64,000 bases of DNA from Geosiphon pyriformis uo1 (GCA_016748015.1 JAAOMT010000352.1:558001-622000); one strand, 5' to 3'. Counted from the stretch's first letter, positions 26,891 to 58,060 are shown. Translations and numbers: made by a program. The notes: generated by a model from the letters alone, not told the origin.

Positions 26891-29800
26891 TATAATTCTA
26901 TAGAGAACAGCACCAACAACAATTATTCAAAGGTAGCAAAATCAGAGATCATAGAAACAAACCACTTAAGATTCGCCAAATTTTTGTTCCAACAGTACAG
27001 CCAACAATTAGGATTAAACAATAACTATTTTTCAGCAGAATCAGCTTTCAACTTTTACATCAATAATAAAATCACAGACTGCTTAGGAGGAACAGTTAAC
27101 ATTGAATCCACAAGAGAAAATTTCTATACAGAATTATTTTAACATACCAGTTTACCAAGAAATTACAGTTTCACACCAATCATTAGGGAAATCAATCAAA
27201 CCATTAAAAGATATACACAACAACAATTCTCAATTACCTAGACAGACAAAAGAAAGGAAAGACTACAAACACCAGCAGTAACACCAAAACAAATACAACT
27301 ACCTACTTAGAAGAAAACCAGAGTTGAATCACCAACAAATTTATCATACCATTACACCCCAAGAAGTGCCATCAACATTTCATTAACAGGCGCATCCACA
27401 TCACACACAACATCAATATTTAGCCAACTTCCATTTCAAAGTAAACAAAAAAAAGCAGAGTTACTAAAAACTTATGGCGACTACTTTGAGGGATTTAAAT
27501 TATGATTTCCAATGCCATCAGGATTCCGATTACCACCACTCCAACCAGATTTCAAAAACACAAGTTTCTGGAAGATAATAAAATCAAAAGAAGAAGAAGA
27601 AAAAGAAGCCAAAGATTAAAAATTTACTTACCAGAACTCAATCCTAGAAAATTCAAAAGTTAAAACTCCAAACATTAAAACCCAGCAAACTCAAAACAAT
27701 CCAAATCCTGAAGCAATTAATCAGCAAAATTTATCTTCAGTAATCATCATTGACCAGTCACCAATTAGACCAATACTTGAACCAATCTCACAACCCCTCT
27801 TTTAGCAACCTATTCAACCACCACTTCAACAATCCCAATAGCCACTTCAACAGCTACAACAACAACTGCAACCACCACCACAACAACAACAACTGAACTT
27901 AGATCCAATGACCTATACTCCAATAGCAAAACTAGAAAAGTTCACAGACGAAAAAGACAATGCCCAAATATGGCTTAATGATGTTGAAAAGACCATCACG
28001 GCCAATAGATGGAATAACATGAAAGCACTCTAGACCATCCTCTACTTCTTATAAAATACTACCAACTTGTGGTATTAAAGTTTAATCGCCAAACTGCAAA
28101 CATTCCAGGAATTTAAAGTTGCATTCCTGGGATATTTCAGTAATAATAACAGTATTAATTATCTAGCCAACACCTTCACCACAATCAAACAAGAAAAAAC
28201 CAAAGCAGTTACTACTTACTTGGGATGTTTCCACAGGAATTTGTGCCAAATACAAGCAATCCAAGCTGACTATTTTACAGCACCTCAGATTTTAAACTAG
28301 TTCATTCATGAACTGCACAGTAACATTCTCCAATGTGTATGCCCAATACATTCAGTAGACTTTCAAGCTGCAGTTACCAATGCCAGAGATTTTGAAACAG
28401 CTAAACATGAAGCTAACCATGCCCAAGCCATAAATCTAGTAATAAATGGATCATCTGAATTGGATTCCAAATTAAAACAATTCAGTGATTCCATTAACTA
28501 AAAGTTTGAAGGGTACTTAACTGACAATTGCGCAATTTATTAACCACTCCAATGATGCAATAATATAGGAATTACAAATCACCCACAAAATCAGTCATAT
28601 TTCTCATTATTATCCAATCAGCCATGACAGCAAGAGACATGTATCTGTCACTACTGTGGTAAACAAGGATATTTGAAAATCAATTGTTAGTTAAGAATAG
28701 AAAACCAACGATTGGGAAATCAATATTAAAATCCCGATCACAGGTTTTCAACCCCAAGTTATCAATTAAACACAGAAATATATCAACCAAATTATATACT
28801 TATGATGCAGCCACAAATTTATTAACTACCAATTTATTAGCCAACAACACCTGTCATTTATCGCCCACAGCCCCAACCCATTTATTAGCCACAGCCTTAG
28901 GTAATTTATCAGCCTCAACAAATTCAAACACCACCACAGAACTTACCTTAAAACAGAACACAAAGGCCAAGACTGACACAACAAAGCTGGAAATTGTCAA
29001 TAGTGGTCCATCAACCAATTTCCAGTTCCATGGCACAACTATCAGAATTTCAACAACAGAATTTGGGCACTGGAAACTTCCAAAACCCAAATGCTCAATA
29101 CTATTTAAGTCTCTTGATTACTCCAGAAAATGCCTTACCCAACAACTGGGAACTCAACCAACACAAACCACTTATCAGCAATATACCTTCAACCACTGTA
29201 ACCAATGATAAATTGCTAACTGTAATTTTCCCATTTGAATTAGAGGAAACCACACCAGTTCTATTATTCGGAGCCACTTTTAACACCAAACCAATCACTA
29301 CCATGTATACTGACACGAAAGTTGATGGTCATGTCATTAAACTGATATTAGACAGCAGATTAGCTGGCAGCATCATTACATGACAACTCATGGACCAATT
29401 AGATTGCCGAGTTGATTGTGCTACTAGTGCTTGTATAATTACTGCTAATGGGACAACCAAAACACCTATTGGTGAAATTGATGACTTCCCTTTTGAAGTC
29501 AATAGTATTATTATTCTCATCAAAGTCTTAGTAATAGAAGCAATTCAATATCAGGCATTAGTAAGAAATGACTAAAACCAATGCCATACTGGACTGGACA
29601 ATACAGAAGCTCCAACTGAGCCAAAACAGTCAACACACATGTGTACCAACCACATGTGGCTATTTCAAGCCAGCCAATATGCCAGCACCACTCATCGAGT
29701 TTGAAAAAGAAAAAGAAAAACCTACCTGAGAAGCTTATCAAGTGTCCTGAGCTAACAAAGATTCCAATAAACTACTGCCTATACTCTCCTGAGACAACAA

Positions 29801-30204
29801 CGGCAAAGAAAAACAGAAAGAAACCAAACTTATCTGGAATGCTGACCTAGCCTGGAAAAATAACCATAAACAGGATGAGCTACCAACTTGAGAATGGGAA
29901 AAAACCGACAAAGGGAAAGGAAAAAGGAAGAAAGAAGACTTACTTGAAGAAACCACCACCACAAAAGAAATAACTAGTAGTTGGGAAAGAGAGTATTCAA
30001 GGGAACCAATAAAAAAACTATCATACATACCCCTCAAATACAAAGACTGTGAAAAGAAACTTTCTTTCATAAGAGCTTGGGTGGTGCAAACAAAGACTAC
30101 TGGACATAAACACATTATTACTATAAGCTGTGCCATAGAAAATGATATGGGTACCCAAAATGTCAAGGAAAATGGGACAATGAACCATGTCTCACTTGTG
30201 GTGA
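26876..30204 (+). pseudogene. Element B Gag - protease - start of Cys-rich region
   Basis: PIAKLEKFTDEKD (Gag CA), CHYCGKQG knuckle, LILDS protease; cut at CLTCG by element C. Confidence 0.85.
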
Positions 30205-30973
30205 TGTTACAGATAATTACTTAGGGTCTCAAGACAAATAACAAACCCATAACTTGGTGCTCAATTGATATAATGCTGTTAGTAAAATCTGAAGGTGTGT
30301 TTTTCTGAAGATTTTGGTTGAGTCCTTTGTATAATGGACAGAGATTCAGTGGTAATAGCTTTTATCCATAGCTTCCCAAAACCACAGTTTTGTCAATTTT
30401 TTTCTCAGCTTGATGGCTGGTATTCCTCCTGGTAAGATATTCTCAATTGAGTATCCTACCCTTATTTCTGGGTCTTTTATCAGTGCTATATTCTGATGTC
30501 AGTACCCCACGCATTAATCCTCAATAGAGTTAGTAATAACAACAATTAAGACAAAAAAATAAAAGAAATGACATAAAGTAATGAGCCAAGGCAATGCACA
30601 AATTAGTATTTGTCAATAGCTGTGATCAAGAGCTATTGTTCCAGTGTAATTAAGTATTAATTGCTATCAACATGGAATGTTGATAATGAAAAGTGGATTT
30701 GGATGGTAAATAATTTATTTATTCAATATTTGTAAAATAGGAGATTTCTAACTAAAGGATTTTTTTTTTCTACTTTTAATGCTACTGCTATATATACATA
30801 ATTGATATTCTATGAGATTGCTCACATTTCCAAGCAATGTGTTATGATTTCTTGAACAATATGCCATAATTTCTGATATTGTTTCATATTGCTGAACAAT
30901 GTGCTCATGTGCTAAATACTATTTTCTTATTGGTCTGCTATTTTTTCTATCTGTTTTCTTTTTATGAGTAATA
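30205..30973 (-). repeat. Element C 3' LTR (769 bp)
   Basis: Direct repeat of 39325-40194, with fewer U3 tandem units. Confidence 0.92.
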
Positions 30974-31599
30974 TTATCTTCTCCTTTTAATATTGAGCTC
31001 TGTCAAAATCTTCATCTTGAATTAATTCTAATACTTCTTTTTCAAGTATTGTTTGTTCGATTCTGTTTTTTATGTCTTCTACTTGTGTATTGTTTATTCT
31101 TCCTCATTGGTTAATAGATATGGTTTCCATGTCAGAGTGTAACAGTATTTCTGGATAGTTCTGAAATATGTTGTCTAGTTAATAAATTGTTCTTACATGT
31201 AGTGTCAAGTTTATCTTTTTCCCAATAAATTTTTCAATTTGCTGTATTATGTTTTGGTTAAATACTTTCTTGGATTTGTCAATATACAACTCCTGAATAT
31301 TCAACTTTCGACCTAATTGGTAGTAACAGTATAATATTAGAAGTTGCTCTGTCCATTGCTTCCAATTCTCTTTTGTAAGTTCTTCTATTGGTGCCATAAT
31401 ATGTATTTTTCTAAAAATGTTCTTTACTTTTTCAATTATAATATCTGACCAGTTTTTATTATTCTTTGGTAAACACTGATATGGTGTATTCTTTGTCTTT
31501 TTTTTGGTTGTTAACAATAGTTTCCAGGTCTAAAGGTTGTTGACTTAAGGCCTGGAATAATTGTTAAGTTATGGTGTGAATATGATTTGGTATTTCCAT
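30925..31599 (-). pseudogene. Element C ORF3 (unknown)
   Basis: ATG at 31599 (MEIPNHIHT); near-identical to B ORF3 apart from a short deletion. End approximate. Confidence 0.75.
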
Positions 31600-31660
31600 T
31601 TTTCTTGGTTGCTTTTGTCGTGTATACTGTGTCTTTTATATACTCTTTTATTGTTTAATT

Positions 31661-33036
31661 TTATGTGTTTGGTCCAATGATTATGATTGGTTCCAGATCT
31701 CGTAAAATCTCATTTGGTTGAACTAGTATTCATTGTACTCCTAATTGTGGAATATTATTGGTGGATGATGATGCTATTTGGTAATATGGTTTCAGTCAAT
31801 TACCATGTGCTGCTTGGTTAAAATTTTGTTGTTCCATCTTAGTTTATAAGCTTCATTTCCAATAATTTCTTCAATGTGGAATGGTTCATCTTATTTGAGG
31901 TCAAATTTTCTATTCCATTGTTTTTCCGCTTTAGTATAATGTAAAAGTACTTTGTCTCCAATCTTGAATTCAACTGGTTTGTCTGGTAGTTGGTTATCAT
32001 GTCTCTCTTTTTGTTTCTCTTGTGACTTTTAGATGTTATCAGCTGCTTTTCATTACTTGTTTTCTAGAGTTTCTATCAAGTCATATGTTCTTCTTAGCAA
32101 TGTTTCTTGAAAATTGTCTTTAGTTATTGGTTTTGTTGGATAAGTGTTGACTTCTATCTTGACTAGTAATGTTGCTGTTCTATTGTATACTAATTCAAAT
32201 AGTGTTGCTTGTGTAGTGTCATGCTTTATTGTCTAATAAGCAAATAGTACTGATGGTATAAACAAATCCCATTCATTTTGATTCTTTTGACTGATTTTGG
32301 CAATTGCTTCACACAATGTTCTGTTAAACCTTTTGACTAGTCCATTTGTTTGTGGATGATATGGTGATGATAGTAGTCTTTTTATCCCAAATCTCTGACT
32401 TAATTCTGTTAATGTTCTATTTACAAAATGAGTTTTTTGATCTAATAGTAGTTTTTTTGGACATCCATGTTGACATATTAAATCTTGATGGACAAATTCA
32501 GCAACAGATTCTGCATCTGCTCTTTGAATAGCTTTTGCTTCTGGTCATTTAGTGAGATAATCCATAGTTACTGCAATATATCTGTTGCTCTTACTGGTGA
32601 TTATTAATGGTCTGACTAAGTCAATTCTAATGTGATCAAATGGTTGTCCCACTTTGATTGGTCTTAATGGTTCACTTGGTCTTGTTCCTCCTCTTCTTTG
32701 ACAAATATCACAATTTTGAACATATTAGATGATGTCTAAATACATTGATGGCCAATAATATCTTTTTCTGGTTCTTTTTATGGTCTCTTCTTTATGAAAA
32801 TGTTCTGCTGTTAGATCTGAGTGCATGTTGAATAATACTGTTTCTTTCTCTGGTTCTGTGATTACTCTAATTGGTTGATCTGGATTTCTTCTGTTCTTCT
32901 AGTAAAGTATATTTTGATGATTGATAAAATATTTTGATTGTTGTTTTATGTTGTTTTGTTTCTTTTGAGATAATTTCTCCTTGAACAATTGATTATTTAT
33001 ATAATACTAGAGTTGTTGGTATTTTTGTGTGTTCAT
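31661..33036 (-). pseudogene. Element C integrase, separate ORF
   Basis: ATG at 33036 (MNTQKY), downstream of the RNase H stop at 33067-33069; colinear with the B integrase. Confidence 0.87.
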
Positions 33037-33066
33037 CTTTTGTTATATTTTTGTGTTGAAATGTTT

Positions 33067-36000
33067 TTAGATTTGTTTCATTCATGACAGTTCATCGGCA
33101 TTTCCATTGTCTTTTCCCTTTTTATAATGTATTGTATAATTAAATGATGAAGGTTCTATTTTCCATCTGGCATGGCAATTGTCTGCAAATTCTTGTTTCT
33201 GGATTGAAGTCAATCCTTTGTGATCAGTGTACACTTCAAACTTTTGACTCAAGTATTCCTTTCATTTAATAACAGTCCAATAGATAGCTAAGTGTTCTAG
33301 TGCTAGAGTTTTATAGTTCTTCTCAGCTGGACTTAAGCTTCTATTGGCATAAGCTACTGGATGTTTTCTCTCATTTGATCCTTTCTGTGATAGTACTGCT
33401 CCCAATGCTTCACCTGATGCATCAGTGGTAATTATGAATGATTTGCTGTGATCTGGATACATCAATACTGGAGCTTGGATAAGCTTTTTTCTTAATGTGT
33501 CAAATGCTTCTTGTTGAGCTTTGGTCCATTTATACTTCACATTCTTGGTCTGTAGATGGTAAAGTGGCTGAGCCAGTTTTGAAAAGTCTTTGATAAAATG
33601 GCAATAATATCCTGTGAATCTCAAGAATGCTCTTAATTCTGTGAGATTGTTTGGTACTGGAAAGTTCTTGACAACTTCAATCTTGTCTGGATTCATTTTG
33701 ATTCTATCATTGCTTACTACATGTCCCAAAAACTTGAGTTCAGTTTTTTCAAAGAAACATTTGGTTGTGTTTAGTTTCAATTCTGTTCTTCTCAATCTTT
33801 CAAACACTTGTTGGAGATGATGCAAATGATCATCAAATGTTTTTGAGAACACATTGGTGTCATCTAAGTATACAACTACTGATTTCTATAGTAACCCAGT
33901 ATAGATGATTTTCATGAGTCATTAGAATGTTGCTAGAGCATTCATCAAGCCAAATGGCATAACTTCAAACTCAAAATTTCCTTCTTTTGTGGTGAATGCT
34001 GTTTTTTCTTTGTTGGCTGGGTACATGGCTACTTGCCAGTAACCATTATCCAAATCTAGTGTTGAGAATCATTTATTTCCTCCAAAAGCATCGAATAGTT
34101 CTTGGATCTTTGGAGTTGGATAGCTATCACTTTTTGTTACTCCATTCAGTTTTTGGTAGTCTACACAAAAATGGATTTTTCCATTTTTCTTACAGACCAG
34201 TACTACTGGTGATAACCATAGACTCATTGATGGCTAAATTAGCCTATTGTCAAGCATTCAGTTAATTTCTTGACAAATAATCTCATGGCTAGCTGGTGGT
34301 ACTCTGAATGCTCTTTGTTTTATTGGCATTGCATCTCCAGTTTTGATTTGATGCTGGATGATATTGGTTTGGCCAAATTCATTTTCGCTGGTAAAGATGT
34401 CATTGAAGTTGTTGAGTAATATTTTGAGTTGTATCTGTTGAAGTGAATCCAGATTCTCCATGTTCATTTGTTCTAATTGTTCTGGTTGGAGCAAATAACA
34501 TTCACTTCTTCTATAGATGGTTTGTGATGTAATATCCACATATCCGCAAAGCTGTGGAAAATCTGGAATGTGGTTTGGTGGTTGATTTTCAACTTTGGTG
34601 GTTAAATACCCAATGATGGTTTCCTTTGGTATTTTGATAACATTTTTGGTTGTGTTGTAAATGGGGATTTTGATATTTTTGGGGCTTTTGGCTGATATGT
34701 AGAGATTAGTGAGTCCAATTTCTCTGAATTCGCAAATAGTGGCTTCTGCTTTAAACAACTGAGCCTGATTTTTTACTTTTCTTTTTATGGCTAATCTATA
34801 CTGGCCATATGATGGAATAAAAATTGTTTGACAGATTGAGATAATTTCTTCTTTGCCAACAATTTCTTCCTCTGCCATATTAACTGGTATATTTATTCTA
34901 TCTGTTGATCCAAATCTCTGTATTCCTTTAGCTGTAATCCCTAATTCTTCCCTGTTTCTCACTGATACTAACTGAGCTATTTTGACCAGAGACAGGAATA
35001 TTGTCTGCACTATCTTTTCATTTGGCTCTATTACATAGGCCTTTTCTGAATTGTTTTGTAGCATAGCAATAATATTTTCCACATATTCTGCATCAATTAT
35101 TTCTCCTTTGATGTTAATTCCTCTTTTTGCTAGACTACTCCTAGATGCTAGTTGAACCATTATGGTTGCTGGAATTTCCAGTGCTATCTTCAGATCAATG
35201 CAAATGCGTGAATGTAGTTCCAATTTGATGGCATTTTTTTCAGGAAATCTCAAATCAAACCCTACATCAGTATTATGTGCATGCTCTGGCATGATATTTT
35301 TGCCATTATCACTAAACTATTTAAGTTCCTGTTCCTTAGTGAAGTTAGGAAGTGCGATGAATGTTTCAGGATTTGAATCGGAGTTTAAATCATCATAAAT
35401 TTTGTTACTATTCAGAGTGGAGCTAAAACTGTTGTTTTCATTATTGTTATTGTCAGAGTTTGAATTGGAATTGAAAGTTAATTCCGATTCTGATGTGCAG
35501 TTGCTTATTGGTTTATCTTCTTCTGGGATTGTGTAGATCATGTGTGGTAGTGGATTGTAAATGAGGTCACACTCATTACAATATTAAAAGTCACAGGAGA
35601 TTAAGCAATGTTGACATAATCGAGTGTTTAACTGCTCTAAATGCTGCTCCTGTTCTTCCCTAGTAGGTGCCAAATACTGGTAATGTTCATGAAATTCTTT
35701 TGGATTGTTTTCAATGTTGCCAAAAATGTCAAAAGTTTGGACGTATTCGGGTTTAAGAAGAGATAAAGAGTTGTTTTTGATCTCTAGTATTTTGCTGGTT
35801 GTCACACCTTTTGCTTTTACATATGCCATTCTCCATAGTTCATTTTTGTCATGAGGATATCCTTCCAATTGTCACAATACTCATTTTCAGGTGTTGTTGA
35901 TTGGTGTTTCTTTGCTTACCTAATTGTTTATTAGTATGATGTATTGGCATGTCTCATCGCATGTTTTTCCATGCCCAGGGATGTCATTCCACATTCCTTT

Positions 36001-39000
36001 GTCAGATAGGATAGTTCTACATATGAGACATGGTTGGTTATTCCACTTTTCTTGTCGTTTTGGTTATCCAAAATGCTCTATAACACATGGGCGGCAGTAA
36101 AATCTTGTGGCCATGAAGTATTCCTTGTTGTCGCCACAGCATGCGCCTATTGACGACAATTTCTTGCCACAATCAATGCATTCCAATTTTGGTTGACAAT
36201 AATTGGATGGTGGTGATGAAGTATAAGCATATGAACTATAAATACTGCTGGGGAGAGTAGTTCTTTCTTCTTTTTTTTTTTTTCTCTTATCAATTTCTTT
36301 CCACTTCTAGTTTGCTGGTTTGTTTTGGTTGTTATCAGTTTCTCAGTTTTGGTTAGTATTCCAGATAAGTTCTTTGTTTTCCTTCCTTTTTCCCTTGTTA
36401 TTCCAAGAAAATATTGGTGGTAGCTTATTGTGGTCTTTGTTGGCTCAAGAGACTTGGTACACTTCCCAAGTAGATTTCTCTTTTTCTTCTTTGAATTTGA
36501 TGAAGAGAGCTGATGGTGTGATGATGGGTTTGAAATAACCACACATGGCTGGTACACATGTGTGTCATCCGTTCTGACTAAGCTGGAGCTCTTGGGTGTT
36601 CCAATCAAGTATTGCATTGATTTTGAACAGCCAGTCATTACTTACCAGTGTTTAGTATTAAGTAGCTTCTATGACTAATACCTTGATTGGTATAGTGATG
36701 CCATTGATTTTTATGGACAAGTTATCTATTTTACCAATTGGAGTTTTGGTGGCTCCATTAGTGGTAATTATCCTTGTACTGACAGCTCAATCAACTTGGC
36801 AACCTAATTGGTTCATAAGCTGTCTTGTAATAATACTATCAACTGATCCACTATCTAGGATCAGTTTGATAAACTGATCATCAATTTTGCCATCCATGTA
36901 CATCACCATGATAGATTTTTCCTCAAGTGCAGCTCCACTAAACAAAGGAGTTTCTGTCAGTTCCTCGATTTCGAAAGGAAATATAACTGCTAGAGACTTG
37001 TCTTCCATGACAGTGGCTGGCAGAATATTGGTAAGTGATTGCTTTCATTTGGATTTCCGAGTGTTGGTTGAGGCGTTTTCTGAGATAGCCAGAAGACTTA
37101 AATAGTTCTGAGAACTCGGGTTTTGAGTATACCTGGTTTCTGTACTTCTTTGTCATAATCTTGACAGCTGGTTGAATGAATTGGGGATTGGTTAGTGAAC
37201 AACTATCACTGATCTCCAGTTTTGGGTAACTCTCAATCTAGAGTTTTCTGATGTCATTTGAGCTGGGTTTGATGGCAGTGTTTGAACTGTGGGTGTTTGA
37301 TAAATTATTTGTGGCTGTGGTGGTTGATATATTATTAGTGGCTGCAGTTAATAAACTAGAGGTTGATATATGGGTGGTTGATATATTGGCTTTTGCATTA
37401 TTGGCAGGTAAGTTGGTTGATATGGGGCTGGATTGGATTGATAACTCAGAGTTGGGAACTGGCAATCGGAGTTTTGATATTGATTTCCTGATTGTTGGTT
37501 ACTATAAGCATGGCAATTGGCTCTAAGGTAACCTTGTTTACCACAGTTGTGGCAAATTTGCATTTCTTAATGCCACAGCTAATTTGTTAATGATAATAGA
37601 CATAACTGATTTTGGAAACAATTTGTGTTTCCCTGATTATTACATCATTGAGAAGGCTAATAAATTGGGTGATTGTCAGCTAAGTATCCCTCCAATTTCT
37701 GATTAATTGAATCACTGAATTGTTTCAGTTTGGAATCTAATTCAGATGACCCATTCATTACTAGATTAATGGCTTGGACGTGATTGGCCTCTGACTCAGC
37801 TGATTCGAAATCTCTGGTGCATGTGACTGTATCTTGAAGGGTGCCTGGATGCAACAGATGTACATGTTGCAAGATACTGCTGCACAGACCACAGATAAAC
37901 TGGTTGAGGATCTGTGGTGCTGTGAAATATTTGGCATCAATTGCTTGAATTTGGCATAAGTTTCTATGGAAGTGTTCTAAGTAAGTGGTAACTGCTTCAG
38001 TTTCTCCTTGTTTGATTGTGGTGAAGGTGTTGGTTAAGTAATTAATGCTGTTATTATTACTGAAATATCCCAAAAATGCAGTTTTGAATTCCTGGAATGT
38101 TTGAGGTTTAACGTCTAAACTCTGATACCACAAGTCAGCAGTATCTTGTAGAAAATAGAGAATCACTTGAAGGGCTCTGTCATTGTTCCATCCATTGGCT
38201 GTGATGGCTTTTTCCATATTGTTAAGCCATACTTGGGCATCGTCCTCTTCACTGGTAAATTTCTTAATTTTGGCGATTGGAGCATAAGCCATTGGTTGTT
38301 GTTGTAGTTGCTGCTGGTTTTGTTAAGGTAGCTGTTGTGGCTGTTGTTGTTGTTTAGTGTTTGGTGGAGCTGGTGGTGGATTAATCACAATTACTGGAGG
38401 TAAGTGTTGTTAATTATTAATGTCAGGGTTTTGATCATTCTAATTGTGCTGTGTTTGAAAATTCAGAGTTTCAATTTCCAGTTTTTCTAGATTTAGATGT
38501 TTCAGAGTTTGAACATTTGGGGTTTTAAATTTCAGGTTTTCTGGGATCGGATTTTGGTAAGTAAATTCCTGGTTCTCAAATTTTTTTTTCTTTTCTTCTT
38601 GTTCTCTTTCCAATTCTGTGACTTCCCAAGGACTCATGGTTCCGAAATCTGGTTGAGATGGCAGTAATCAAAATTCTGATGGTGTTGGCAATCATGATTT
38701 AAATTCTTCAAAATATGTGCCATATAGTCCTAATAAGTCTTTTTTCATTTGTTTACTTTGAAATGGAAATTGTCCAAATGTTGATGTCACGTTTGATATA
38801 GACATGCCTGCTACTGCGATATTGATGGCACCTCCAAGAGTATAATGATATGATGGATTTGTAGGTGATTCAATTCTGTGTTTCTTCCAAGTGGATGGTT
38901 GGATACATTAGAGTGTTACTGCTGGTGTTTGTAGTTTTCCTTTGTCTTTACTTGTGTAGGTGATTGGGTATCTCTGTTGTGTGTAATGTTTAATTTCTTT

Positions 39001-39290
39001 ATTAATCTCAGTGATGATGGATGCAAAATTATAGTTTGTTGGTAAGCTGCTGTTTTGGATTAATTTGTTGTAAAAAGTTTCCCTTGCTGATTCGGTATTT
39101 GTTGCTGTTCCTAATAAGTAGGCAATTCTCTCATTGATGTAAAAGTTGAAGGCTGATTCTACTGATATGTGATTCAGGATTAATTCCAAGTGTTAACAGT
39201 AGTATTGAAATAAGAATTTCGCAAATCCTAAATAGTTTGCTCCTATATTTTCTGATTCTGCCACTGTTGATTTATTTGTTGGTGCTGGTT
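33067..39290 (-). pseudogene. Element C polyprotein Gag-PR-Cys-rich-dUTPase-RT-RNase H
   Basis: MAYAPIAKIKKF (Gag), CHNCGKQG, LILDSGS, dUTPase 34900-35292 (GFDL, RSS, IDAEY, IVQ, FGST), YLDD, TDAS. Confidence 0.9.
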
Positions 39291-39324
39291 CTCTGTAAGA
39301 TTATATCTCACAAGAAGCACCAAA

Positions 39325-40194
39325 TATTACAGATAATTACTTGGGGTCTCAAGGCAAATAACAAACCCGTAATTTGGTGCTCAATTAATATAATGCTGTT
39401 AGTAAGATCTGAAGATGTGTTTTTCTGAAGGTTTTGGTTGAGTTTTTTGTATAATGAACAGAGATTCAGTGATAATAGCTTTTATTTATAGCTTCTCGAA
39501 ACTGCAATTTCATCAATTTCTTTCTTAGCTTGATGGCCGGTATTCCTTCTGGTAAGATATTCTCAATTGAGTGTCCTACTTTTATTTCTGGGTCTTTTAC
39601 CAGTGCTATATTCTGACATCAGTACCCCGTGCATTAATCCTCAATAGAGTTAGTAATAACAACAATTAAGACAAGAAAATAAAAGAAATGACATAAAGTA
39701 ATGAGCCAAGACAATACACAAGTTAGTATTCATCAATAGCTGTGATCAAGAGCTATTGTTCCAGTGTGATTAAGTATCAATTGCTATCAACATGGAATGT
39801 TGATAGTGAAAAATGGATTTGGATGGTAAATAATTTATTTATTCAATATTTGTAAAATGGGAGATTTCTAACTAAAAAATTTTTCTTTTTCTACTTTTAA
39901 TGCTACTGCTATATATACATAATTGATGTTTTATGAAATCGCTCACATTTCCAAGTGATGTGCTATGATTTTTTGAGGAATACTCACATTGCTGAGCGAT
40001 GTGCTCTAATTTTCTAACATTGCTTCACATTGCTAAGCAATGTGCTATGTTTTCTGACATTGTTCCACCTTACTGAGCAATATGCCATAATTTCTGACAT
40101 TGCTCCATATTGCTGAGCAATGTGCTCACATGCTAAATACTATTTTTTTATTAGTCTGCTATTTTCTCTATCTGTTTTCTTTTTATGAGTAATA
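39325..40194 (-). repeat. Element C 5' LTR (870 bp) with ~40-bp tandem palindromic units
   Basis: Units start at 39985, 40026, 40066, 40106 with core CACATTGCTGAGCAATGTG. Confidence 0.92.
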
Positions 40195-43139
40195 GCAAAC
40201 AGTTGCTTGATAAAAGAATGTGGAATGACATTCCTGGGCAAAAAGAAATGTACAATGCTTTATGCCAATAGATGATCCTTATCAGCAACTGAGTGAGTTG
40301 TAAAATGCCTATTACTGCAGCCTGGCACCAAGTAATTAATCACTTGAACAGATATCCACATGATGAGGATGAGATCTGGCATATAGCCAATACCAAAATC
40401 GAAGGAGCCATGCCCAGCAAAATCTTAGAAATCAAAAACAATCCACCAAAACCAGTTGACATTATCTTTATCCCAAATTTGGATGCATTTCTTGACATAG
40501 AGACAGGCCCAGAGGAATTTCATGAGCACTACCAGAATTTGGCACTCACTAGAGAAGAGTAAAAACAATGCTTGGAAGAAATAAACACCCAATTATGTGA
40601 CTACTATTTAATTCTATATGACTTCCAGTATTGTAATGAGTGTGATTTTATTTACAATTCACCATCATGCATAATCTACATGATTCCAGAAAAAAAACCA
40701 ATCAACAGCTGTACATCAGAATCGGAATCAAGTTTCAATCCCAATTTAAACTCCGACAACAATGATGAAGAAAATAACAGTTCTAGCTTCACTCAAATTG
40801 GCAACAAAAATATCAACAATTCAGACTCTGATTCAAACCCCGAAATATACATTGCACTTTCTGATCTTTCCAAGAAGCAGGAACTTAAATGGTATAGTGA
40901 CAATAATGAAAATATTATGCCAAAATGTGCACATGATACCAATACAGAGTTTGATCTAAGATATCCAAGAAAAAAAGTCATCAAATTGGAACCAAATTTG
41001 TGCACATATGTTGATTTCAAAATAGCTCTGGAGATTCCAGCAACAACCATGATTTAATTAGCATCTAGAAGTAGTTTAGCAAAAAAAAGAATCAACATTA
41101 GAAGAGGAATAATTAATGCGGAATATGTAGAAAATATTATTATTATGCTACAAAATGACTCAGAAAAAGCCTATATTATAGAGGCAAATGAAAAGATAGC
41201 ACAGGCAATATTCTTATCTCTGGTGAAAATAGCTCAGTTAGTTTTAGTAGAAAAAAGGAAAAAACTAGGTATTACAGTAAGAAGAAAACAGGAATTTGAA
41301 TCAATAAGTAGAATAGATATACCAGTTAATATAACAGAGGAAGAAATTATTGACAGAAAAATTATCTCAACCCATCAATCAATTTCCATTCCACCATATG
41401 ACCAGTATATATTAGCCATAAAAAGAGAAGTAAAAGATCAAGCTCAGTTGTTTGAAGCAGAAGCCACTATTTGTGAATCAGGAGAGATTGGACTCACTAA
41501 TCTCTACATATTAGCCAAAAGCCCAAAAAACATCAAAATTCTCATCTACAATACAATGAGAAGAGTCATTAAAATACCAAAAAGAACCATCATTGGATAT
41601 TTAACCACAGAAGTTGAGGATCAACAGCCAAACCACATTCTAGATTTTCCACAGCTGTGTGAATATGTGGACATCACATCACAAATCATTTACAGACAAA
41701 GCAAATCTTATCTGCTCTAATCAGAACAATTGGAACAAATGAACCTGGAAAATCTAGACCCACTTTAACAGATGCAACTAAAAATGTTACTTAACAATTT
41801 TAATGACATCTTTGCTAGCAAAAACAAATTTGGCAGAACCAACATTATCCAGCATCAGATCAAGACTGGAGATGTAATGCCAATCAAACAGAGAGCATAC
41901 AGGATACCACCAGCTAGCCATGAAATTATTTGTCAAGAAATCAATCAGATGCTTGACAACAGGTTAATTCAGCCATCAATAAGTCTATGGTCATTACCAG
42001 TGGTACTAATCCAGAAGAAGAATGAAAAGATCTGCTTTTGTATAGACTACTGAAAACTGAATGGAGTAACCAAAGGAGATAGCTACCCAACTCCAAAGAT
42101 TCAAAAATTGTTTGACGCTTTTGGCAGAATGAAATGGTTTTCAACTTTGGACTTAGACAGTGGTTACTGGCAAGTAGCCATGAAGTCGGAAGATAAAGAG
42201 AAAATGGCTTTCACAACACAAGAAGGGAATTTTGAATCCGAAGTAATGTCATTTGGCTTAATGAATGCTCCAGCCACATTTCAATGACTTATGGAAATTG
42301 TCTATACTGAACTGCTATGAAAATCAGTAGTCATATACTTGGATAATACCAATGTGTTCTCAAAAACATTCGATGATTATCTACATCATCTCCAACAAGT
42401 CTTTGAAAGACTTAGAAGAGCAGGATTGAAACTAAATACAACTAAGTGTTTCTTTGGAAAAACTGAACTCAAGTTTTTGGAACATGTTGTAAGCAAAGAT
42501 GGTATCAAAATGGATCCAAATAAGATTGCAATAGTAAAGAACTTTCTAGTACCAACCAATCTGACAGAACTAAGAGCATTTTTGGAATTCACAGACTACT
42601 ATTGTCGTTTTATCAAGAACTTTTCTAAACTGGCTCAGCCACTTTATCATTTACAAACTAAGAATGTTAAGTATGAATAGACAGAAGCTCAACAAAAAGC
42701 ATTCAACATACTGAGACAAAAGCTTATTTAAGCTTTAGTATTAATGTATTCAAATCACAGCAAACCATTTATCATCACCACCAATGCATTAGGCCAAGCA
42801 TTAGGAGCCGTACTATTACAAAAAGGACCAGATAAAAGAAAACATCTAGTAGCTTATACCAGTAGAAGCTTAAGCCCAGCTGAAAAGAACTATAAAACTT
42901 TAGCACTAAGACACTTAGCAATCTATTGGGCTGTCACCAAATAAAAAGAATACTTGAGCCAAAAGTTTGATGTGTATACTAACCACAAAGGATTGATTTC
43001 AATTCAGAAGCAAAAATTTGGAGATAATTGTCATGCAAGATAGAAAATAGCACTATTACCATATACATTTACAGTATATTATAAAAAGAGAAAAGACAAT
43101 AGAAATGCCAACAGTTTGTTGTGAATGAGACAAATCTAA
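40195..43139 (+). pseudogene. Element B Cys-rich region - dUTPase - RT - RNase H
   Basis: Continues CLTCGEQLLD across C; dUTPase ~40918-41310; LDLDSGYWQ, YLDN; stop TAA 43137-39. Confidence 0.88.
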
Positions 43140-43169
43140 AAACATTTCAACCCAAAAATATAACAAAAG

Positions 43170-44546
43170 ATGAACACACAAAATTACAAACAACTCTAAT
43201 ATTATATAAATACCCAATTGTTCAAGGAGAAATTATCTTAAAAAGAACAAAACAACATAAAACAGCAATCAAAATATTTTATCAATCATCAAAATATACT
43301 TTACTGAAAAAACAGAAGAAATCCAAATCAACCAACCAAAGTAATTACAGAATCAAAAAAAGAGACAATATTGTTTAACATGCACTCAGATCCAACAGCA
43401 AAACATTTTCATAAAGAAACAACAATAGAAAAAACCAAAAAAAGATATTATTGGCCATTAATATATCCAGACATTATCTAATATGTTCAAAATTGTGATG
43501 CTTGTTAAAGAAAAAGAGGAATAAGACCAAGTGAATCATTGAGACCAATTAAAGTAAGACAACTATTTAATCAAATTGAAATTGACTTAGTTGAACTATT
43601 AACAATCACTAGCAGAGACAACAGATATATTACAATAGCCATGGATTATTTTACTAAATGGCCAGAAGCAAAAGCCATTCAAAGAGCAGATGCAGAATCC
43701 ATTGCCAAATTCATCCATTAAGACTTGATTTGTCAACATGGATGTCCAAAAAAACTACTATCTGATCAAGAAACTCATTTTGTGAATAGAACATTGACAG
43801 AATTAAGTTAAAGATTTGGAATAAAAAGACCATTATCATCACCATATCATCCACAAACCAATGGACTAGTTGAAAAATTCAATAAAACATTGTGTGAAGC
43901 AATTGCCAAAATCAGTCAAGAAAACCAAGACAAATGAAATTTGTTTATATCATCAGTATTATTTGCTTATCGGACAATGAAACAAGATACTACACAAGCA
44001 ACACTATTTGAATTAGTATATAGTAGAACAGCAACATTACCAATTGAGATAGAGGTCAATACATATCCAACTAAACCAATAACAGAAGCTAATTTCCAAA
44101 AAACATTGTTGAGAAGAACATATGACTTAATGGAAACACTAGAAAACAGATGACAAAAAGCAGCTGATAATATCCAAAAGTCTTAAGAAAAGCAAAAAAA
44201 AAGACACAATAACCAGTTATCAGATAAACCAGTTGAATTCAAGATTGGAGACAAAGTACTTCTACATTGTACCAAAGTGGAAAAACAATGGAATAAAAAA
44301 TTCGACCCCAAATGAAACAAACCATTTCACATAGAAGAAATTCTTAAAAATAGAGCTTATAAATTAAGATGGGACAACAAAATTTTAGCCAAAGCAGCAC
44401 ATGATAATTGTCTAAAACCATATTACCAAATAGCATCATCATCTACCAATAACATTTCACAATTAGGAGTACAATGAATACTAGTTTAACCAGATAAGAT
44501 TTCACAAGATCTGGAACCAATCATAATCATTGGACCAAACATGTAA
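43170..44546 (+). pseudogene. Element B integrase, separate ORF
   Basis: MNTQNY start; MDYFTKWPEA, YHPQTNGLVE; ends LEPIIIIGPNM*. Confidence 0.87.
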
Positions 44547-44606
44547 AATTAAACAATAAAAGAGTATATAAAGACACAGTATACATAACAAAAGTAACCA
44601 AAAAAA

Positions 44607-45302
44607 ATGGAAATACCAGATCATATTCACACCATAACTCAACAATTATTCCAGATCTTAAGTCAACAATTTTTAGACATAGAAATTATTGTTAACAACC
44701 AAATAATTTGTTATCAAAACACCAAAAGAAAGACAAAAAATACACCATATTAGTGGTTACCAAAGAATGATAAAAACTGGTCAAATAACATAATAGAAAA
44801 AGTGAAGAACACTTTTGGAAAAATACCTATTATGGCACCAACAGAAGAACTTACAAAAAAGAATTGGAAGCAATGAACAAAACAACTTCCAATATCTTAC
44901 TGCTATTACCAATTAGGTCAAAAGTTGAATATTCAAGAGTTGTATATCAACAAATCCAAGAGAATATTTAACCAAAACATAATACAGCAAATTGAAGAAT
45001 TTATTGGAAAGAAGACAAACTCAACACTACATGTTAGAACAATTTACCGACTGCACAACATATTTCAGAACTATCCAGAAATATTGTTACACTTCAACAT
45101 GGAAACCATAACCATTAACCAATAGAGAAGAATAAACAATAGACAAGTAGAAGACGTAAAAAATAGAGTCGAACAAACAATACTAGAAAAAGAAGTATTA
45201 GAGCTAATTCAAAATAAGATTTTGATAGAGCTCAATATTAAAAAGGAGAAGATAATGTTACTTATAAAAAGAAACAGATATAGGAAAATAGGAGACCAAT
45301 AA
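44607..45302 (+). pseudogene. Element B ORF3, unknown ~231-aa protein overlapping PPT and 3' LTR
   Basis: ATG 44607, one frame to TAA 45302, three internal stops explicable by transitions. Confidence 0.78.
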
Positions 45303-46056
45303 GTGAATAGTATTTAGCATGTGAACACATTGCTCAGCAATGTGGAGCAATGTCAAAAATCATGGCACATTGCTCAAAGAAATTATAGCACATTACTTGA
45401 GAATGTAAGCAATCTCGTAAAACATCAATTATGTATATATAGTGGTAGCATTAGAAGTAGAAAAAGCAGAATTCTTCCATTAAAGACCTCCCAGTTTAGA
45501 TTTCATCTAAACAACCTTCTAATTTACAAATATCAATAAATAATTATTCACTATCTCAATTCACTCTCCACTATCAACACTTCATGTTGATAGTAATTGA
45601 TACTTAATCATGCTAGAACAATAGCTCTTGATTACAGCTATTGACAGAATACTAACTTGTAATTGCTTTTACTTGTTCCTTTATTTTCTTTTATTTTCTT
45701 TTATTTTTTTTTGTTATTTTTCTTTGGTTTTACTAAATTGATTAAGGATTAAGCACTGAGATACAGACATCATAGGGACTGGTAAAAGACCCATGAAACA
45801 AGAGTAAAACACTTATAGATTTGAGAATAGCTTACTAGGAGGATTACTGGTCACCACATTAAGAAAAAAATTTGACAGAATTGTGATTCCGGGAGGCTAC
45901 TGAAAACAACTATTAAATCTCTGTTCATTATACAAAGAACTCTGCAACAAACCTTCAGATCAACAAAACCTTCAGATATTAACACCAGAATACCAATTAA
46001 GCACCAAGTTACAGGTTTGTTATTTGATTTGAGACCCCAAATAATTATCTGTAATA
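45256..46056 (+). repeat. Element B 3' LTR
   Basis: Preceded by PPT aaaaaggagaag; matches 26082-26871. Confidence 0.92.
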
Positions 46057-46220
46057 ACGGAATTGGTTATTTTACTCATAAGCCCAGCAGTTCAAATTAT
46101 AAAAAATAATTTAAAGATAAATTCAGTTATTGAAGGTCCAACTACTTCTTGAGAACATGAATTCACAGCAAATCAACATTAACAATATTTAAGAAAAGAG
46201 ACCAAAAACCTCTAATAACA
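46057..46220 (+). repeat. Element A 3' LTR, right remnant
   Basis: Matches ~17172-17335 and ends ...taataaca. Confidence 0.9.
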
Positions 46221-52147: not shown

Positions 52148-54582
52148 TCAGATTTTTCTATTCGAACGTTTCTTCCCAACCTGTCTCCTCTTTTTTCCTG
52201 ACTCAAAACCGGCTGCTTGTTCCAAGGTACGCCCAATATTGTCTAAATCTTTGACCTTATAAATTCTGACAATCCAATTTTCGGTTGTATATGCTTCCTC
52301 CAAAGTATGTAACTTAATCTTTCCATGGGATAATTTCACACCACGAACACGATCTGTACCTTGACCGCCAAAAAGCTCATTGTAATTGTAATAGCTCATT
52401 TTATACATGATGCTATTACGCATTGTTGGTGTTGCCTCATCACCAACACGATATTCGCCGCGTTCATTAAAAAAGTCCTTTTCCCTAACTTGGTCAGGAT
52501 AGACGCCTTCTGCAATACGTATCATCCATAGAAATTTATTGATATCATCTCCAGAATATCCAAGCAATCCGCCGAAAATTATAAGCACATAATTGACATC
52601 ATGTCGGCGCAATATTTCATAAGCAGAATTTTCATCAGATGCTAGAGCACGACCGACAGTGGCGATGTGAGTGTTGTTCCATGTGTTATTGTCGACTAAA
52701 ACTGTGCGATCTGCCATCCCAGCAATCTGATAGCCATAATCCCACCAAGATAAAATTTTTGCCGAATAATCAGTATTTTTTCGTAGCCAGTAATATGCTT
52801 CTCTAAAATCATCAATAATGTAATTTGAACCATCAGCAGCTCGCGAAGCGAGGACAATAGAAGGAGAAGAATAAGCGGTGGTTGTCACCCATGTGCAATG
52901 CCATGTGAATATCCACAAGAAGAACAAGAAGTTCATGGTAACAATCAAGCGAGTATCAATTCCCAGAATTCCATAGTATTTGGTTTCTTTTTTCTTTTTC
53001 TTATCCACTAGCTTATTCGTGGTTGCAGCACCACCTTTTTTTGAGGAGGTTGGCTTGTCTGTATTTTTGAGCTTTTTTGTGCTCTTCTCATTAGCTTTAT
53101 CTGTAGCAGAGTCAGTAGACGTCTCATCCTCATCAGACAGATCGAGTGTCGACAGATCGAGATAAGTATCCAGTAGCCAAGAGAGAGCGACCGCAGATGT
53201 GACACAAACAATCGGAGTCAAGGCCAATATAAGCCGAACCATTACCCCCGCAAAATATGAGGCAGTAATTCCATATAAAATTACAAAAACGTGCTCATCA
53301 CGCAACTCTCTAAAACATAAATAAGTACCAGCTGGAAACAGAAATATCAGCATTTCAAGGTCGAAGAAAAATGATGGCCAGGCAGTTGGTTGATGCTCAG
53401 AAACTGAGGCTATAATCGGAATGTATTTCTTGGCATATCCTGTATCCCACAACGAATAGAAACGTCCAGTCCATGGAGCGATGTACCCTCCAACGGTTAA
53501 AAGAACCAACGCACTGAACATCAAGATAAATACAAGAACTACAAATCCTCTTAAGAGAATTTTAAACTGGTTCGAAGATAAATGATCTCTCACAAGCTCC
53601 ACAAATGCAATTATTTGCAATAGCCCAAATATTCCTAATTTCGGCCAAAATAGATCTAACTTTTAATAATGATCAAAAAACTAAAAGAATAAAGTTAAAT
53701 AAGACTTGCCTAAAGCAGCCATATGTTCACTCGTACGGGTAGGCATAAATCCAACAAAAGGAACTTGCATCGACATCAGGGTGCCAAGTACATAAAATGA
53801 TGAGTAGGAAACGTAAAGGCGGCTGGAAAATCGTCCCATCAAAATTAGCGCAAAAGCATGAAGAGGAATCAAATTGATGATAAAAACGTATCCACCTAAA
53901 AAATTGTTAAGGCTTTGGTTAACTCTCATATTAAAGTGACATTATAAAATTTCCTCCTTAACTTACCCCAAGCAGCGACCATATAAAAATAAAATAATGC
54001 AGCCCAAGCACCCCAAAAAGCGGATCCAAGTTTTAATGCTTTTATCCACAAATAAAAAGTGAAGACTAATAAGAAAATTGCAATTCCTTCATTATCGTAT
54101 GACCCAGCAACAGATCGAGAAATGTAGCCAGGCGCAACGCCAATAAAAGCGGCAGCCAGTAGTCCTGCGGAAGAATCCTTTATTTCCACAGTGAGCAAAT
54201 ATGCAGCTATAGCGGTAAATGCCGAAAATAAAGGTGCTAATAGTACGCACACATTCCGGATATCGACAGGAAAGTTTATTGCGTGTAGAAATTTATGAAT
54301 GACAGCTGAGGTCACCATAATTCCAGGATAAACTGTTCCACCTACCACTCGACCCAACGGGTACCACGACCTCTCGTCGAACCAGTTCCAGAAATCATAG
54401 AACCCGTTGGCGACCAAATACCGAGTGGTACGATAGTTAAACCATGGGTCAAACTCATGAATAACACTTTCGTAGCGTACTATACTGAACAGACGACTGC
54501 CGATGGCCACTGCGGCGATGAGACCGATAATAACAACTTTTAATAGAGCCGCTTGGTTTTGTGCGTCTAAACCGAGCACCAT
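52148..54582 (-). CDS. STT3: Oligosaccharyltransferase catalytic subunit STT3; exons 54582-53967, 53895-53710, 53634-52148 (762 aa)
   Basis: [43 protein letters not shown]. Spliced length 2289 nt is in frame. An alternative upstream ATG exists at 54618. Confidence 0.97.
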
Positions 54583-55211
54583 CTTAAATTTGTGCGTACG
54601 AGGTTGAAAATTCAACATACGAAACGCACAATAAAATCTAAAGAAACTAAGCTCGAATCAAAAGACTAACCCAGTAAAGAATCTGCAATAAATGCAGTTT
54701 TATGTGTTTCTCGAAACTTTCCCGTTCATTTTTGAAATCACAAAATTTCTCAAGTTTCAGCCAATTAATGACTAACACATCTTTGATGCAAATCTAGTAA
54801 CACAACAATCATATGTCTTTAATTCATTTTATAATATGCTTTTATTGAGTGTAGCCCACATATAAACAGACTAAAGTCTCTTAACAAATATGGCTCACGC
54901 GTTTTAGTTATATATATGTATTCTTATTTTTCGATTTAAATAATATAATCTTTTATTAATTACTTAGATTTTAATAAATAGTTTATATTGTTAACAAAAA
55001 ACTTGTAAAAAATTAAATATTTAAATATTTTTAAAATTGGCTAGTTTTTTTATTAGAACATTTTGTTATGATTTTTTGATTTTTTAATGTTTATTAAAAA
55101 AAATCAAAAATTAATTTTAGAATAAAATAATACTTATTTTGCAATATAGCAAAAAAATCAAATTTTTTTTATCTTGTAAAAAAAGCATAATTGTAAATTT
55201 ATAAATATTAT

Positions 55212-58060
55212 TGTTATGGATTGGAGTAACAAGCTAATGAATAGCAAAAAAAAACAGAATTATAGGGTAATGGAAATAATTAAAGAGAGAATTACAATAA
55301 GAGAGTGAATTAAATGAGTAAGAATTCAATGTGTGTAATTAGTTTCATAAAAATTACAGGTACAACTTTTTTCTAAGAATCTAAAAGTAGAGAAATAGTC
55401 TGTGATTGTCAACAAGATAATATTGTTGTTATTATTCTATGCTTTACTTGGTAATTCTTAGAATTAATAATAGATATTATTGTGCTTTTTAATTGTTTTT
55501 TTATTTAATAAATTACAAGAACAAGCAATCGCTTTTTAGACTAATTCTAACAAATACAAATTAAAAAGAGAAAAAGATAAGATATGTAAATATTAACAAG
55601 TAATCTTTTATTTCAAGATGTTTAGATACTTAAAAGTAGAAAAAAAGGAATAAGTAATATAAGAAGAAGTAATTAATAGTGAGTTTTATTTTATTACTTT
55701 AATAATTAATACTGTTATAACTAAAAAACTTATTGTTTATATAACTATTAAATATGGTTAATGACTAAATTAATAATTAGATTAATAATTAGGTCAATGA
55801 TCAGATCAACAGTTAGGTCATTAATTAAGTAAATAATTACTATCTAAAAATATAATAACAAATTATATAATATTAGTGACTAATACATATAATAACTAAT
55901 AAAAACTATGGTTTTTAATTATAATATCATTTTTTTCAAAAAAATTGAGCTTTGATGAAGTTTTTTGTATATAAAGTATATAATATTTAAGGTAAAATAA
56001 GCTTTGTATTTAAGAAATTAAATCTTTGTATAAGAGTTTTGGTTCTTTTTACAATGATCAAAATTCTTAGAACATCCAATTATATAATGCCCAGAATTTT
56101 CACTTGTATTTCTAAAGCTGTTTTTTTATAAGCTTTATATCTTTTATGATTTTATTAAAACAACCATAAAGTTCTAGTTGTCTTTTATATGACAAATTTT
56201 TGTTATTGGACAAAATTTTTTTAATTGTTTTTTCAAGTATATTGAAAGATAATAGTATGCTTGTTATTATGTTTTAGGCACATATTTATTTATTTTGCTA
56301 CCAATTTTTTTTCTTCTAATAGTGGTTTTCTTTGGTTTAATAACAGTATATATTTTATTGTTATTGGTTATAATAGTCTGTTTTCTAATAATCAGAATAG
56401 CATTTGGATAATTTTTGATCAAATACTTATAGAAAGTATAAAAAGCATTTTGAATGTTTTGATCTAAGAAATAATTGTTCATGTCAATTAAAAATATCTC
56501 TGTTTTGAGAATAATATATTTATTTATATCTAATTTTTGCTAATCATTTGGATTAGTATTATCACAACAAATAATTAATCAGATTATTTGTGATATTTTT
56601 TGAATTTTATGTTATAAACAGAGTAATTATTAAAGATTGTTTCATATTGATTTTGTAAGATATAAAAATTATTTTTTAAAACTTTATTGACTATAAAAAA
56701 TTTTTTTTATTGACTAAAAAATTTATTACCATAAATATTATTTGTTTAAGTGGTATTTAAAAACTATGTTACCAACACTTAAAAAAAATGTTTTATAAGT
56801 TTTTTTTGAAACTGCTTTATTTTTTTAAAGGCAATTATCTGTGCTTTTATTAATAAGTTAAAAATAATATTAAGTTTTTTTTGCAAAATATTTTTATAAT
56901 TTCTTATTAAAAAGTATTGTCTTAATATTAATTTTTATTAGTAGTATTGCTATTTATTTATAGAACAGATAAAAAAATTCATAACTTATTATGTCATAAT
57001 TTACAGTTTTATAAGCAAACAAAATTAAAAGCAGTATTTTGTTTTATAAATTTGTTTCTTTACTGGTTTTGGCTAAGATTTTATATAGTGTTTTATTAAA
57101 ACATTCCACTAGGTTATTTGTTTAAAGGTAATAAAAAAAAAGTTTATAACATATTCCTATTTTTCTACAAAATTTTTTAACTAGTGTATTAAAAAAAGCT
57201 CTTTTTTTATCAAATAAAAATTTTTTGGAGCAACTATGGTAACAAATAATATCTTTATAAATAAAGTTGACAATAAAAACTGTTGTTTAATCTGGAGTGA
57301 CTTTTGTTTCTATTCATTTTATAAGATAGTCAGTAGCTATAATAATATATCTATTGTCATCAAAAGTTATAATTAAAGATCCAACAACATCTATACCAAT
57401 TCTGTTAAATAGTTAACCAATAAAAATTGGATAAATGTTTTCTTTGTTATTGGATTTTTTTTTCTTTGACAAGTATCATAAGTTTTAATGTATTCAACAA
57501 TGTTTTTTTTTAAAATAAGCCAATAATAGTAAACAAGTGTTTTTTGAATTGTTTTAGTCTTTTCAAAGTGCCCAACTAATGGATTAGTATATATGTTATA
57601 AATCACAATTTTTTTTTTCAAATTTGATATAACTTTCTAAAAATAATCAGGATTTTTTTATTTTTTTTGTATAGTTGGTTTTGGCAGATTAAATAAAAAT
57701 TTGATTGTTTTTGCAAATGTTTTCTTTGCTATTAAGTATAGTTTAGTGAAGGTTGTTTTTTATTCAAAAATTTTATTAAAGCAAAATAGTTGTTCAAATT
57801 TATTATTGTGTTTGTTTTAAGAAGAAGTTACTAATAATTAGATTGATTTAATTTGAAAAAATTGTGTACTATAATTGAATAGTAAGTTTAGAGAGAGTAT
57901 TAGCATTTTGATAATAAGCTTTTTTGCAATGTTGTATATTATAGTCAAATTTATTTAGATAGAGTATCTAGTAAGTTATTTTTTTGTGTTTTAGTTTTTT
58001 TTCTTATGTAGCCAAACCAAAGCTTAATGATTTATTATTACCAGAAATTTAACATCAAAA
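55212..58060 (-). mobile_element. Decayed LTR element G: 3' LTR (~55212-55926), 3' ORF, integrase, end of RNase H
   Basis: Integrase zinc-binding region (LVGHFEKTKT...YYW...DTCQRK); NANTLSKL then a stop at ~57869; PPT-like tract and gagct motif at ~55927-55952. Confidence 0.65.

Follow-up and report, generated by a model that had tools for sequence, protein, structure and literature searches.

A separately encoded integrase in decayed Ty3/gypsy-type elements of Geosiphon pyriformis and their relatives

The stretch of DNA analysed here (the window) is 64,000 nt long, comes from Geosiphon pyriformis uo1 (GCA_016748015.1, JAAOMT010000352.1:558001-622000), and contains three nested long terminal repeat (LTR) retroelements, A, B and C, with C inside B and B inside the 3' LTR of A. 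LTR elements are given as 41.2% of the G. pyriformis genome in the available text of PMC11952901. Pfam matches to open reading frame (ORF) pieces of A, B and C comprise capsid, protease (PR), dUTPase, reverse transcriptase (RT), RNase H (RH), H2C2, rve and SH3 domains in gypsy order. A single frame covers Gag-PR-dUTPase-RT-RH in element C, with the integrase (IN) afterwards, and the insertion of C has pulled the gag/PR and pol/IN parts of element B apart. All three are decayed Ty3/gypsy elements of a large lineage in which the integrase is a separate ORF, and their coordinates are collected in Table 1.

In element B, the Pol stop lies four codons past the final motif of RNase H (43104-43124, of the NADxLSR type), and the spacer that follows holds a second in-frame TAA at 43161-43163. 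The integrase ORF is decayed, with 11 stops in 420 codons, and comprises an N-terminal extension, H2C2, a DDE core and an SH3-type C-terminus. Position 1 of a profile made from 40 intact stand-alone integrases falls exactly on 23054, 33036 and 43170, and the spacers of the window copies are unstructured. Counted from the N of the motif, A, B and C have their stop at codon 12 and the heavily decayed element G at codon 13; in G the integrase start has become ATA at 57803 (+2 frame) and profile positions 2-51 are matched at 57800-57651 (E 4.8e-7). Every coordinate in the original prediction, made from the window alone, is correct; it had given the stops of A, B and C, the 30-nt spacer with a second TAA and the MNTQ start in B and C, and in A the 55-nt spacer and the integrase ATG at 23054 in a different frame. 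Its claim that RNase H ends equidistant from the NAD-type motif in these copies is confirmed at the 12th codon. It had also stated that G ends similarly, which is correct as to a stop (TAG) close to the motif, although this comes one codon later than in the other copies.

Table 1. Coordinates of the integrase junctions, the LTR elements that carry them and the host gene in the window
Feature	Position	Strand	Remarks
Element B Pol stop TAA	43137..43139	+	ends Gag-PR-dUTPase-RT-RH (MRQI*)
Element B spacer	43140..43169	+	30 nt, A/C-rich, AUG-free, unstructured (fold energy 0.0)
Element B integrase ORF	43170..44441	+	ATG 43170 (MNTQ); profile positions 1-423
Element C Pol stop TAA	33067..33069	-	reads 33069-33067
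Element C spacer	33037..33066	-	30 nt; one base different from that of B; same second TAA
Element C integrase ORF	31807..33036	-	ATG 33036; decayed, 10 stops
Element A Pol stop TAA	22996..22998	+	KIRQN*
Element A spacer	22999..23053	+	55 nt, G-free (hence AG-free and AUG-free)
Element A integrase ORF	23054..24328	+	ATG 23054, +1 frame; 3 stops
Element G junction, heavily decayed	57803..57871	-	stop TAG 57871-57869; 65-nt spacer
Element A, whole	16367..46220	+	5' LTR 16367-17331; 3' LTR 25289-26081 and 46061-46220 (split by B); target-site duplication GCAT/ACAT
Element B, whole	26082..46056	+	5' LTR 26082-26871; 3' LTR 45256-46056; 4-bp target-site duplication ATGG/ACGG
Element B, internal parts		+	primer-binding-site-like sequence from 26873; gag/PR 26.9-30.2 kb; pol and IN 40.2-45.2 kb; polypurine tract 45240-45255
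Element C, whole	30205..40194	-	nested in B; 4-bp target-site duplication GTGA/GCAA
STT3 host gene	52148..54657	-	100% identity to a Geosiphon pyriformis protein, 85% to Ambispora

The window copies are dead. Their LTR pairs are direct, have TG...CA ends and are ~87-91% identical, and the differences within them are nearly all transitions (transitions/transversions of 89/4, 75/4 and 62/1), so that C-to-T decay stops occur everywhere in the elements. Their 4-bp target-site duplications (TSD) likewise carry C-to-T/G-to-A changes. The stops at the junction could accordingly be read as decay of CGA or CAA to TAA in dead copies, and the ratio of observed to expected CpG, 0.06-0.17 in the elements and 0.98 in the host gene STT3, fits such a reading, as do the stops held in common by B and C. 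These two copies are 84% identical over 3,034 nt and have 11 common stops in 1,010 aligned codons, where 0.43 would be expected under independence; 9 of the 11 are decay stops inside RT, RH or IN, and one of them is a TAA/TAA pair inside IN (43479). The original argument that shared stops speak against random decay therefore fails for B and C. We rejected their shared stops as proof of the split. Such stops mark mutable sites, and evidence of another kind is needed, from other copies and from intact relatives.

Other copies from the same organism were sought in the contigs of three DNA runs; the element was found in one run (X1) only, with next to nothing in X2 and X3, and such contigs can attest presence but not absence. 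Across the junction (43112-43206; 1,280 contigs), variants at 3% or more occur at three places only (43148, 43169 and 43175), and none reaches this level at the stop (43137-43139), the second TAA (43161-43163) or the integrase ATG (43170-43172). In contrast, a C is found at the decay stops 43239, 43479 and 43506 in 85%, 65% and 74%, respectively, of the contig depth (42600-43700, best 40 of 392 matches). Two decay-type stops near the ends of the junction stretch, 43122 and 43197, likewise have no variant at 3% or more, and loose contig ends there read a sense codon.

Searching with the integrase of element A (stops as X) gave 660 proteins of 301-961 aa, a length range that is blind to fusions. 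Among the best 120 of these, 119 start with Met, most are ~420 aa and align from the ATG of the window, and the named ones are from Rhizophagus. Longer proteins were searched separately for fusions, and six of the best 120 stand out, with 44-53% identity across most of the query, the remainder being ordinary, more distant gypsy polyproteins. Three (P0122, P0123 and P0125) are NCBI gene models without the last RNase H motif, which is seen to be skipped in P0123 and P0125, and P0129 has no RT. The Rhizophagus clarus models P0123 and P0125 connect RT with the integrase via apparent introns in which the end of RNase H is lost and which are likely to be annotation artefacts of the split.

Metagenome contigs supplied 80 loci, kept from 573 and including some near-duplicates, of which 49 reach RT-RH. 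A stop between RH and IN is present in 49/49 loci with both domains (46 scored together and three more added). In the 46 scored loci, the integrase is in frame with Pol in 12, in the +1 frame in 18 and in the +2 frame in 16; the Pol stop is TAA in 26, TAG in 13 and TGA in seven; and in 37 neither the matched RT-RH nor the IN contains a stop. The spacers of the 46 range from -20 to 943 nt, with 10 overlapping or of at most 2 nt, 22 of 24-97 nt and 14 above 100 nt, and the stop/start overlaps, of the types TAATG and ATGxxTAA, occur in at least two clades. An ATG stands at integrase residue 1 in all 64 loci whose match begins there, and its context is that of a strong Kozak sequence (purine at -3 in 55/60, G at +4 in 58/60). 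The closest relative of A, B and C (L003) has no stop in the matched RT-RH and the same type of junction, with a G-free spacer of 24 nt. Viral contigs gave only three weak integrase fragments. The solved Ty3 RT chain 4ol8 ends three residues past the same motif, at what we take to be the Ty3 protease site, and by this comparison the stop sits at the normal RT/IN boundary, where the mature RT of Ty3 ends.

Decay as the source of the junction stops is scarcely credible in the face of these data, and was rejected: the 37 split relatives are undamaged, frames vary between relatives, and the junction is invariant where the decay stops are not. The original proposal that the integrase is a genuine separate ORF is backed both by the invariant junction in the contigs and by the 49/49 split relatives, and no sense codon, such as would have spoken for an RH-IN fusion, appears at 43137 at 3% or more of contig depth. 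On the other side stand the protein P0124, a true in-frame RH-IN fusion; perhaps the R. irregularis gene model P0126, which keeps the RH motif and continues into IN; and the run X1 itself, from which this assembly may derive, together with the loss of rare variants from contigs. We regard the separation of the integrase from Pol as almost certain, and the split as real, inherited and widespread.

The trees comprise 36 split elements, namely A, B and C plus the 33 loci whose RT-RH spans 250 aa or more, and also 25 proteins from the 120 longer ones. The RT and IN distances are correlated (Mantel r 0.76; 0/2000 permutations), and 21 of 22 well-supported RT splits are found again in the IN tree, the one conflict being basal and among fused relatives. 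The incongruence that the original prediction had proposed to look for was not found between these trees, and there is no sign in them of an integrase swapped in from elsewhere, an idea that was rejected; RT and IN have been inherited together. In the joined alignment, which excludes P0170 because its domains are ordered differently, the 36 split elements all fall into one clade (100/98) together with P0122, P0123 and P0124, and A, B and C cluster with L003 (100/100). The RT-only tree has the split elements on one side, with a support of 51. Strict monophyly of the split elements was not obtained, as the fused P0124 is nested inside their clade (97/97), which tells against a simple division, and all bootstrap trees need two changes. 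With the other fused elements as outgroup, the tree reads as one origin of the split and one re-fusion, for an assumed root and a split set that was gathered through IN similarity.

It can safely be assumed that the integrase is translated separately. With moderate confidence we suggest termination-reinitiation as the route, in which ribosomes would finish Pol at the inherited stop that closes RNase H, scan the short AUG-free spacer and restart at the integrase ATG on the same full-length RNA. Reinitiation is favoured by the strong Kozak context at the ATG and by the avoidance of AUG in short spacers, since the 22 spacers of 20-100 nt hold three AUGs where 21.1 would be expected, and 0/2000 shuffles gave a count as low. 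The route is further favoured by the 10 of 46 loci in which start and stop overlap or are at most 2 nt apart; in another 22 the distance is no more than 97 nt.

Several observations weigh against this route. The UGGGA signal of caliciviruses (termination upstream ribosome-binding site, TURBS) occurs in 3/48 loci, which is not above the background of 0.12 per 120 nt, and synonymous conservation is not clearly raised upstream of the stop. Several of the 14 spacers longer than 100 nt are AUG-rich, some with small ORFs and some resembling broken Pol tails. Where gag and pol occupy separate frames, as in L017, few ribosomes would reach the stop, and in 25 relatives a stable hairpin 0-15 nt upstream of the AUG would hinder plain scanning. 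Finally, AUG depletion and Kozak context suit a subgenomic mRNA equally well. Such an mRNA, made from an internal promoter in RT-RH or in the spacer with the split itself real, would present the AUG-poor spacer and strong Kozak context as an ordinary 5' untranslated region, would explain the long AUG-rich spacers more easily, and would free the integrase from the low flux of ribosomes through Pol. We consider it unlikely, because the stop/start overlaps (10/46, counting spacers of at most 2 nt, and found in at least two clades) would then have no reason to persist.

A further alternative is internal initiation or control by RNA structure, with an element before the AUG that recruits ribosomes or serves as a protein-bound switch, the A/C-rich spacers of the window acting as unstructured entry sites. 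It draws on the hairpin just mentioned, an element of ~40 nt present in 26/80 loci (for example at 4458-4506 of L039), with the next ATG 0-15 nt downstream in 25 of them and 32 nt downstream in one. In 23 aligned sequences it forms a stem of 12 pairs, interrupted by a purine-rich bulge of 12 nt on the 5' side and by a bulged A, and 94.6% of the alignment cells are paired. Both sides have changed in nine pairs, and 0/500 shuffles equalled this, a count that is not a probability since the structure was derived from the same related sequences on which it was scored. RNAalifold predicts a nearly identical hairpin. There was no Rfam match at the gathering score (14 loci) or at E<=10 (L039), the exact pattern had no match in viral contigs, and one GTDB genome match, without stem or integrase, was judged to be chance. 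The hairpin is absent from the window copies and from most clades, and control by structure is, in our view, quite improbable.

Members of the main hairpin clade (L024:2482-3330, L027, L039, L044, L054, L056, L074 and L077) have a Pol that extends beyond RNase H by an acidic tail of 220-345 aa, with a common Cys/His-rich motif in 7/8 loci and no Pfam match in L027 or L039. Other spacers have features of their own. In most of the loci L001, L002, L004, L005, L007, L009, L010, L013, L014 and L017, common motifs (TTGA-T-run-AAC and ACGGA) are found no more than 100 nt ahead of the integrase ATG. A second common motif of ~30 nt, with two short complementary pairs and possibly a pseudoknot, is found in the spacers of L015, L029, L033 and L042, in two copies in the last. 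Long spacers that contain small ORFs, either basic or acidic, are seen in L011, L015, L029, L042 and L079; some of these ORFs begin at or close to the Pol stop, and the one in L079 (174 codons) has no Pfam match.

A spliced mRNA, with the 5' leader joined on at an acceptor close to the integrase AUG, as for the Pol of foamy viruses (PMC3705302, partial text), is very unlikely. An AG directly precedes the ATG in B and C, and the NCBI gene models P0123 and P0125 place introns over this junction; however, the G of that AG in element B is A in 23% of depth, the spacer of element A is without any G, in 14 of the 36 loci that lack the hairpin no AG lies 30 nt or less from the ATG, and the model introns remove the last RNase H motif and so look like predictor artefacts. 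An acceptor further upstream would be compatible with the data. Readthrough or frameshifting to give a low level of a Pol-IN fusion is more improbable still: although B, C and 12/46 relatives are in frame and one fused relative lies inside the clade, the integrase is found in each of the three frames and behind each of the three stop codons, two stops are in frame in B and C, and 64/64 loci keep the ATG and its Kozak context.

In textbook LTR retroelements, the integrase enters the particle as part of Pol. An integrase that is not fused to Pol would need a non-standard way in, and we infer by analogy that it would be packaged separately. Made on an RNA destined for packaging, the integrase would attach in cis to that RNA or to RT, and this binding would bring it into the particle without a Gag fusion, as with foamy-virus Pol. 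A more far-reaching scenario is offered only tentatively. An old fungal clade may have exchanged the RT/IN protease cut for a stop and evolved dedicated RNA controls, namely stop/start overlaps, AUG-free spacers and a bulged hairpin that sets the translation of IN and doubles as a particle handle; a Gypsy integrase that stands free, targets CG and has a start of its own would be the step needed toward Ginger1 DNA transposons. That a large and successful lineage lacks a Pol-fused integrase shows that the coupling is dispensable. The split also poses the direct question of how the integrase meets its cDNA, and the lineage offers natural test cases of reinitiation after a very long ORF in fungi. 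There are consequences for annotation too, as public gene models invent introns over the junction, and pipelines that demand a single Pol ORF would rate intact elements as broken in genomes rich in LTR elements.

The window as a whole is rich in AT and in decayed repeats, with STT3 as the sole intact gene. The identities of STT3 place the host, a mycorrhizal-type fungus, among the archaeosporalean Glomeromycota. The TSDs of the three elements lie at 16363-16366/46221-46224, 26078-26081/46057-46060 and 30201-30204/40195-40198, and a solo LTR is present at 48027-48931. A decayed NCGN fits 4/4 of the 4-bp TSDs in the window and resembles the targets of Ginger1. A site of the TGGTGC type, resembling a primer-binding site, follows the 5' LTR, and a purine run (polypurine tract) precedes the 3' LTR. 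The dUTPase between protease and RT is at 20518-21294 in A, 34258-35316 in C and 41058-41720 in B, and a Cys-rich stretch between them is also seen in the translations. An extra ORF lies between the integrase and the 3' LTR (24625-25290, 31000-31700 and 44500-45250 in the window, and also in L008, L014 and L027); four examples gave no Pfam match. A long interspersed nuclear element (LINE) at 5689-11978 on the minus strand has an RRM-like ORF1, endonuclease, RT and RNase H, and LINE fragments at 14004-16058 and 46224-49849 represent a second copy, which harbours the nested LTR stack.

Stop-restart translation has been reviewed for SART1, LINE-1 (with a 63-nt spacer) and a fungal hypovirus (PMC5972666, partial text). 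These systems and the caliciviruses are like the present elements in that the stop of a long ORF carries, or is soon followed by, the separate AUG of a second ORF. They differ in that they separate structural from catalytic proteins, whereas here the cut is inside Pol and the route is a proposed one; the UGGGA-type signal of caliciviruses was not found here above background. The Pol of foamy viruses is made without a Gag fusion and yet packaged, according to the available text of PMC3705302, which parallels an enzyme that needs packaging without such a fusion, but in that case the whole of PR-RT-RH-IN comes from a spliced mRNA, while here IN alone is separate and no conserved acceptor was seen.

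Ginger1 elements, as described in the accessible part of PMC2836005, have a stand-alone Gypsy-type integrase of ~400 aa with YPYY, H2C2, DDE and GPY/F, and a CG-centred 4-bp TSD such as ACGG. The likeness here is one of features, namely H2C2, DDE and GPY/F, together with a possible YPYY-like N-terminus (judged by eye) and TSDs that would fit a decayed CG-centred target. Ginger1 has terminal inverted repeats and no RT, whereas the window elements have direct LTRs, gag and RT-RH, and their IN travels with RT. The integrase homologues are ~420 aa, and no Pfam family of the OTU or Ulp1 type that Ginger1 carries at its C-terminus appears among the best 120 matches. Identity with Ginger1 was rejected on the direct LTRs, gag, RT and lack of OTU/Ulp1. 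No description of a separate integrase ORF was found in the literature searched, including the parts available of PMC3248453, PMC2864245, PMC11952901, PMC12440569, PMC9040795, PMC2836005 and bioRxiv 2021.03.30.436303, with Repbase, GyDB, subscription journals and supplements outside its scope; Repbase entries such as Gypsy-1-I_RO may already annotate the split.

The closest known system is that of the Ty3/gypsy elements (Metaviridae). Ty3 is the best PDB relative of both RT-RH and IN, Pfam matches in the relatives L027, L039 and L017 show gag (capsid) and the order PR-RT-RH-IN, and the structure model of the integrase (pLDDT, predicted local distance difference test, 79) confirms a complete Ty3/foamy-like integrase. 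Elements such as yeast Ty3 share with those of the window the LTRs, TG...CA ends, sites resembling a primer-binding site and polypurine tract, a short TSD and the order Gag-PR-RT-RH-IN, and PosPlaTy3-5 has its dUTPase in the same position, between PR and RT (PMC2864245, partial text). As described by the virus taxonomy committee ICTV, pol is one gene with PR, RT, RH and IN (PMC7879559). An integrase within pol is found neither in the three readable window copies (the start in the decayed G being ATA) nor in any of the 49 relatives, where a stop stands in place of the RT/IN boundary and IN starts separately. On these comparisons, we class the elements as a variant of gypsy ancestry, and a non-canonical member of that group.

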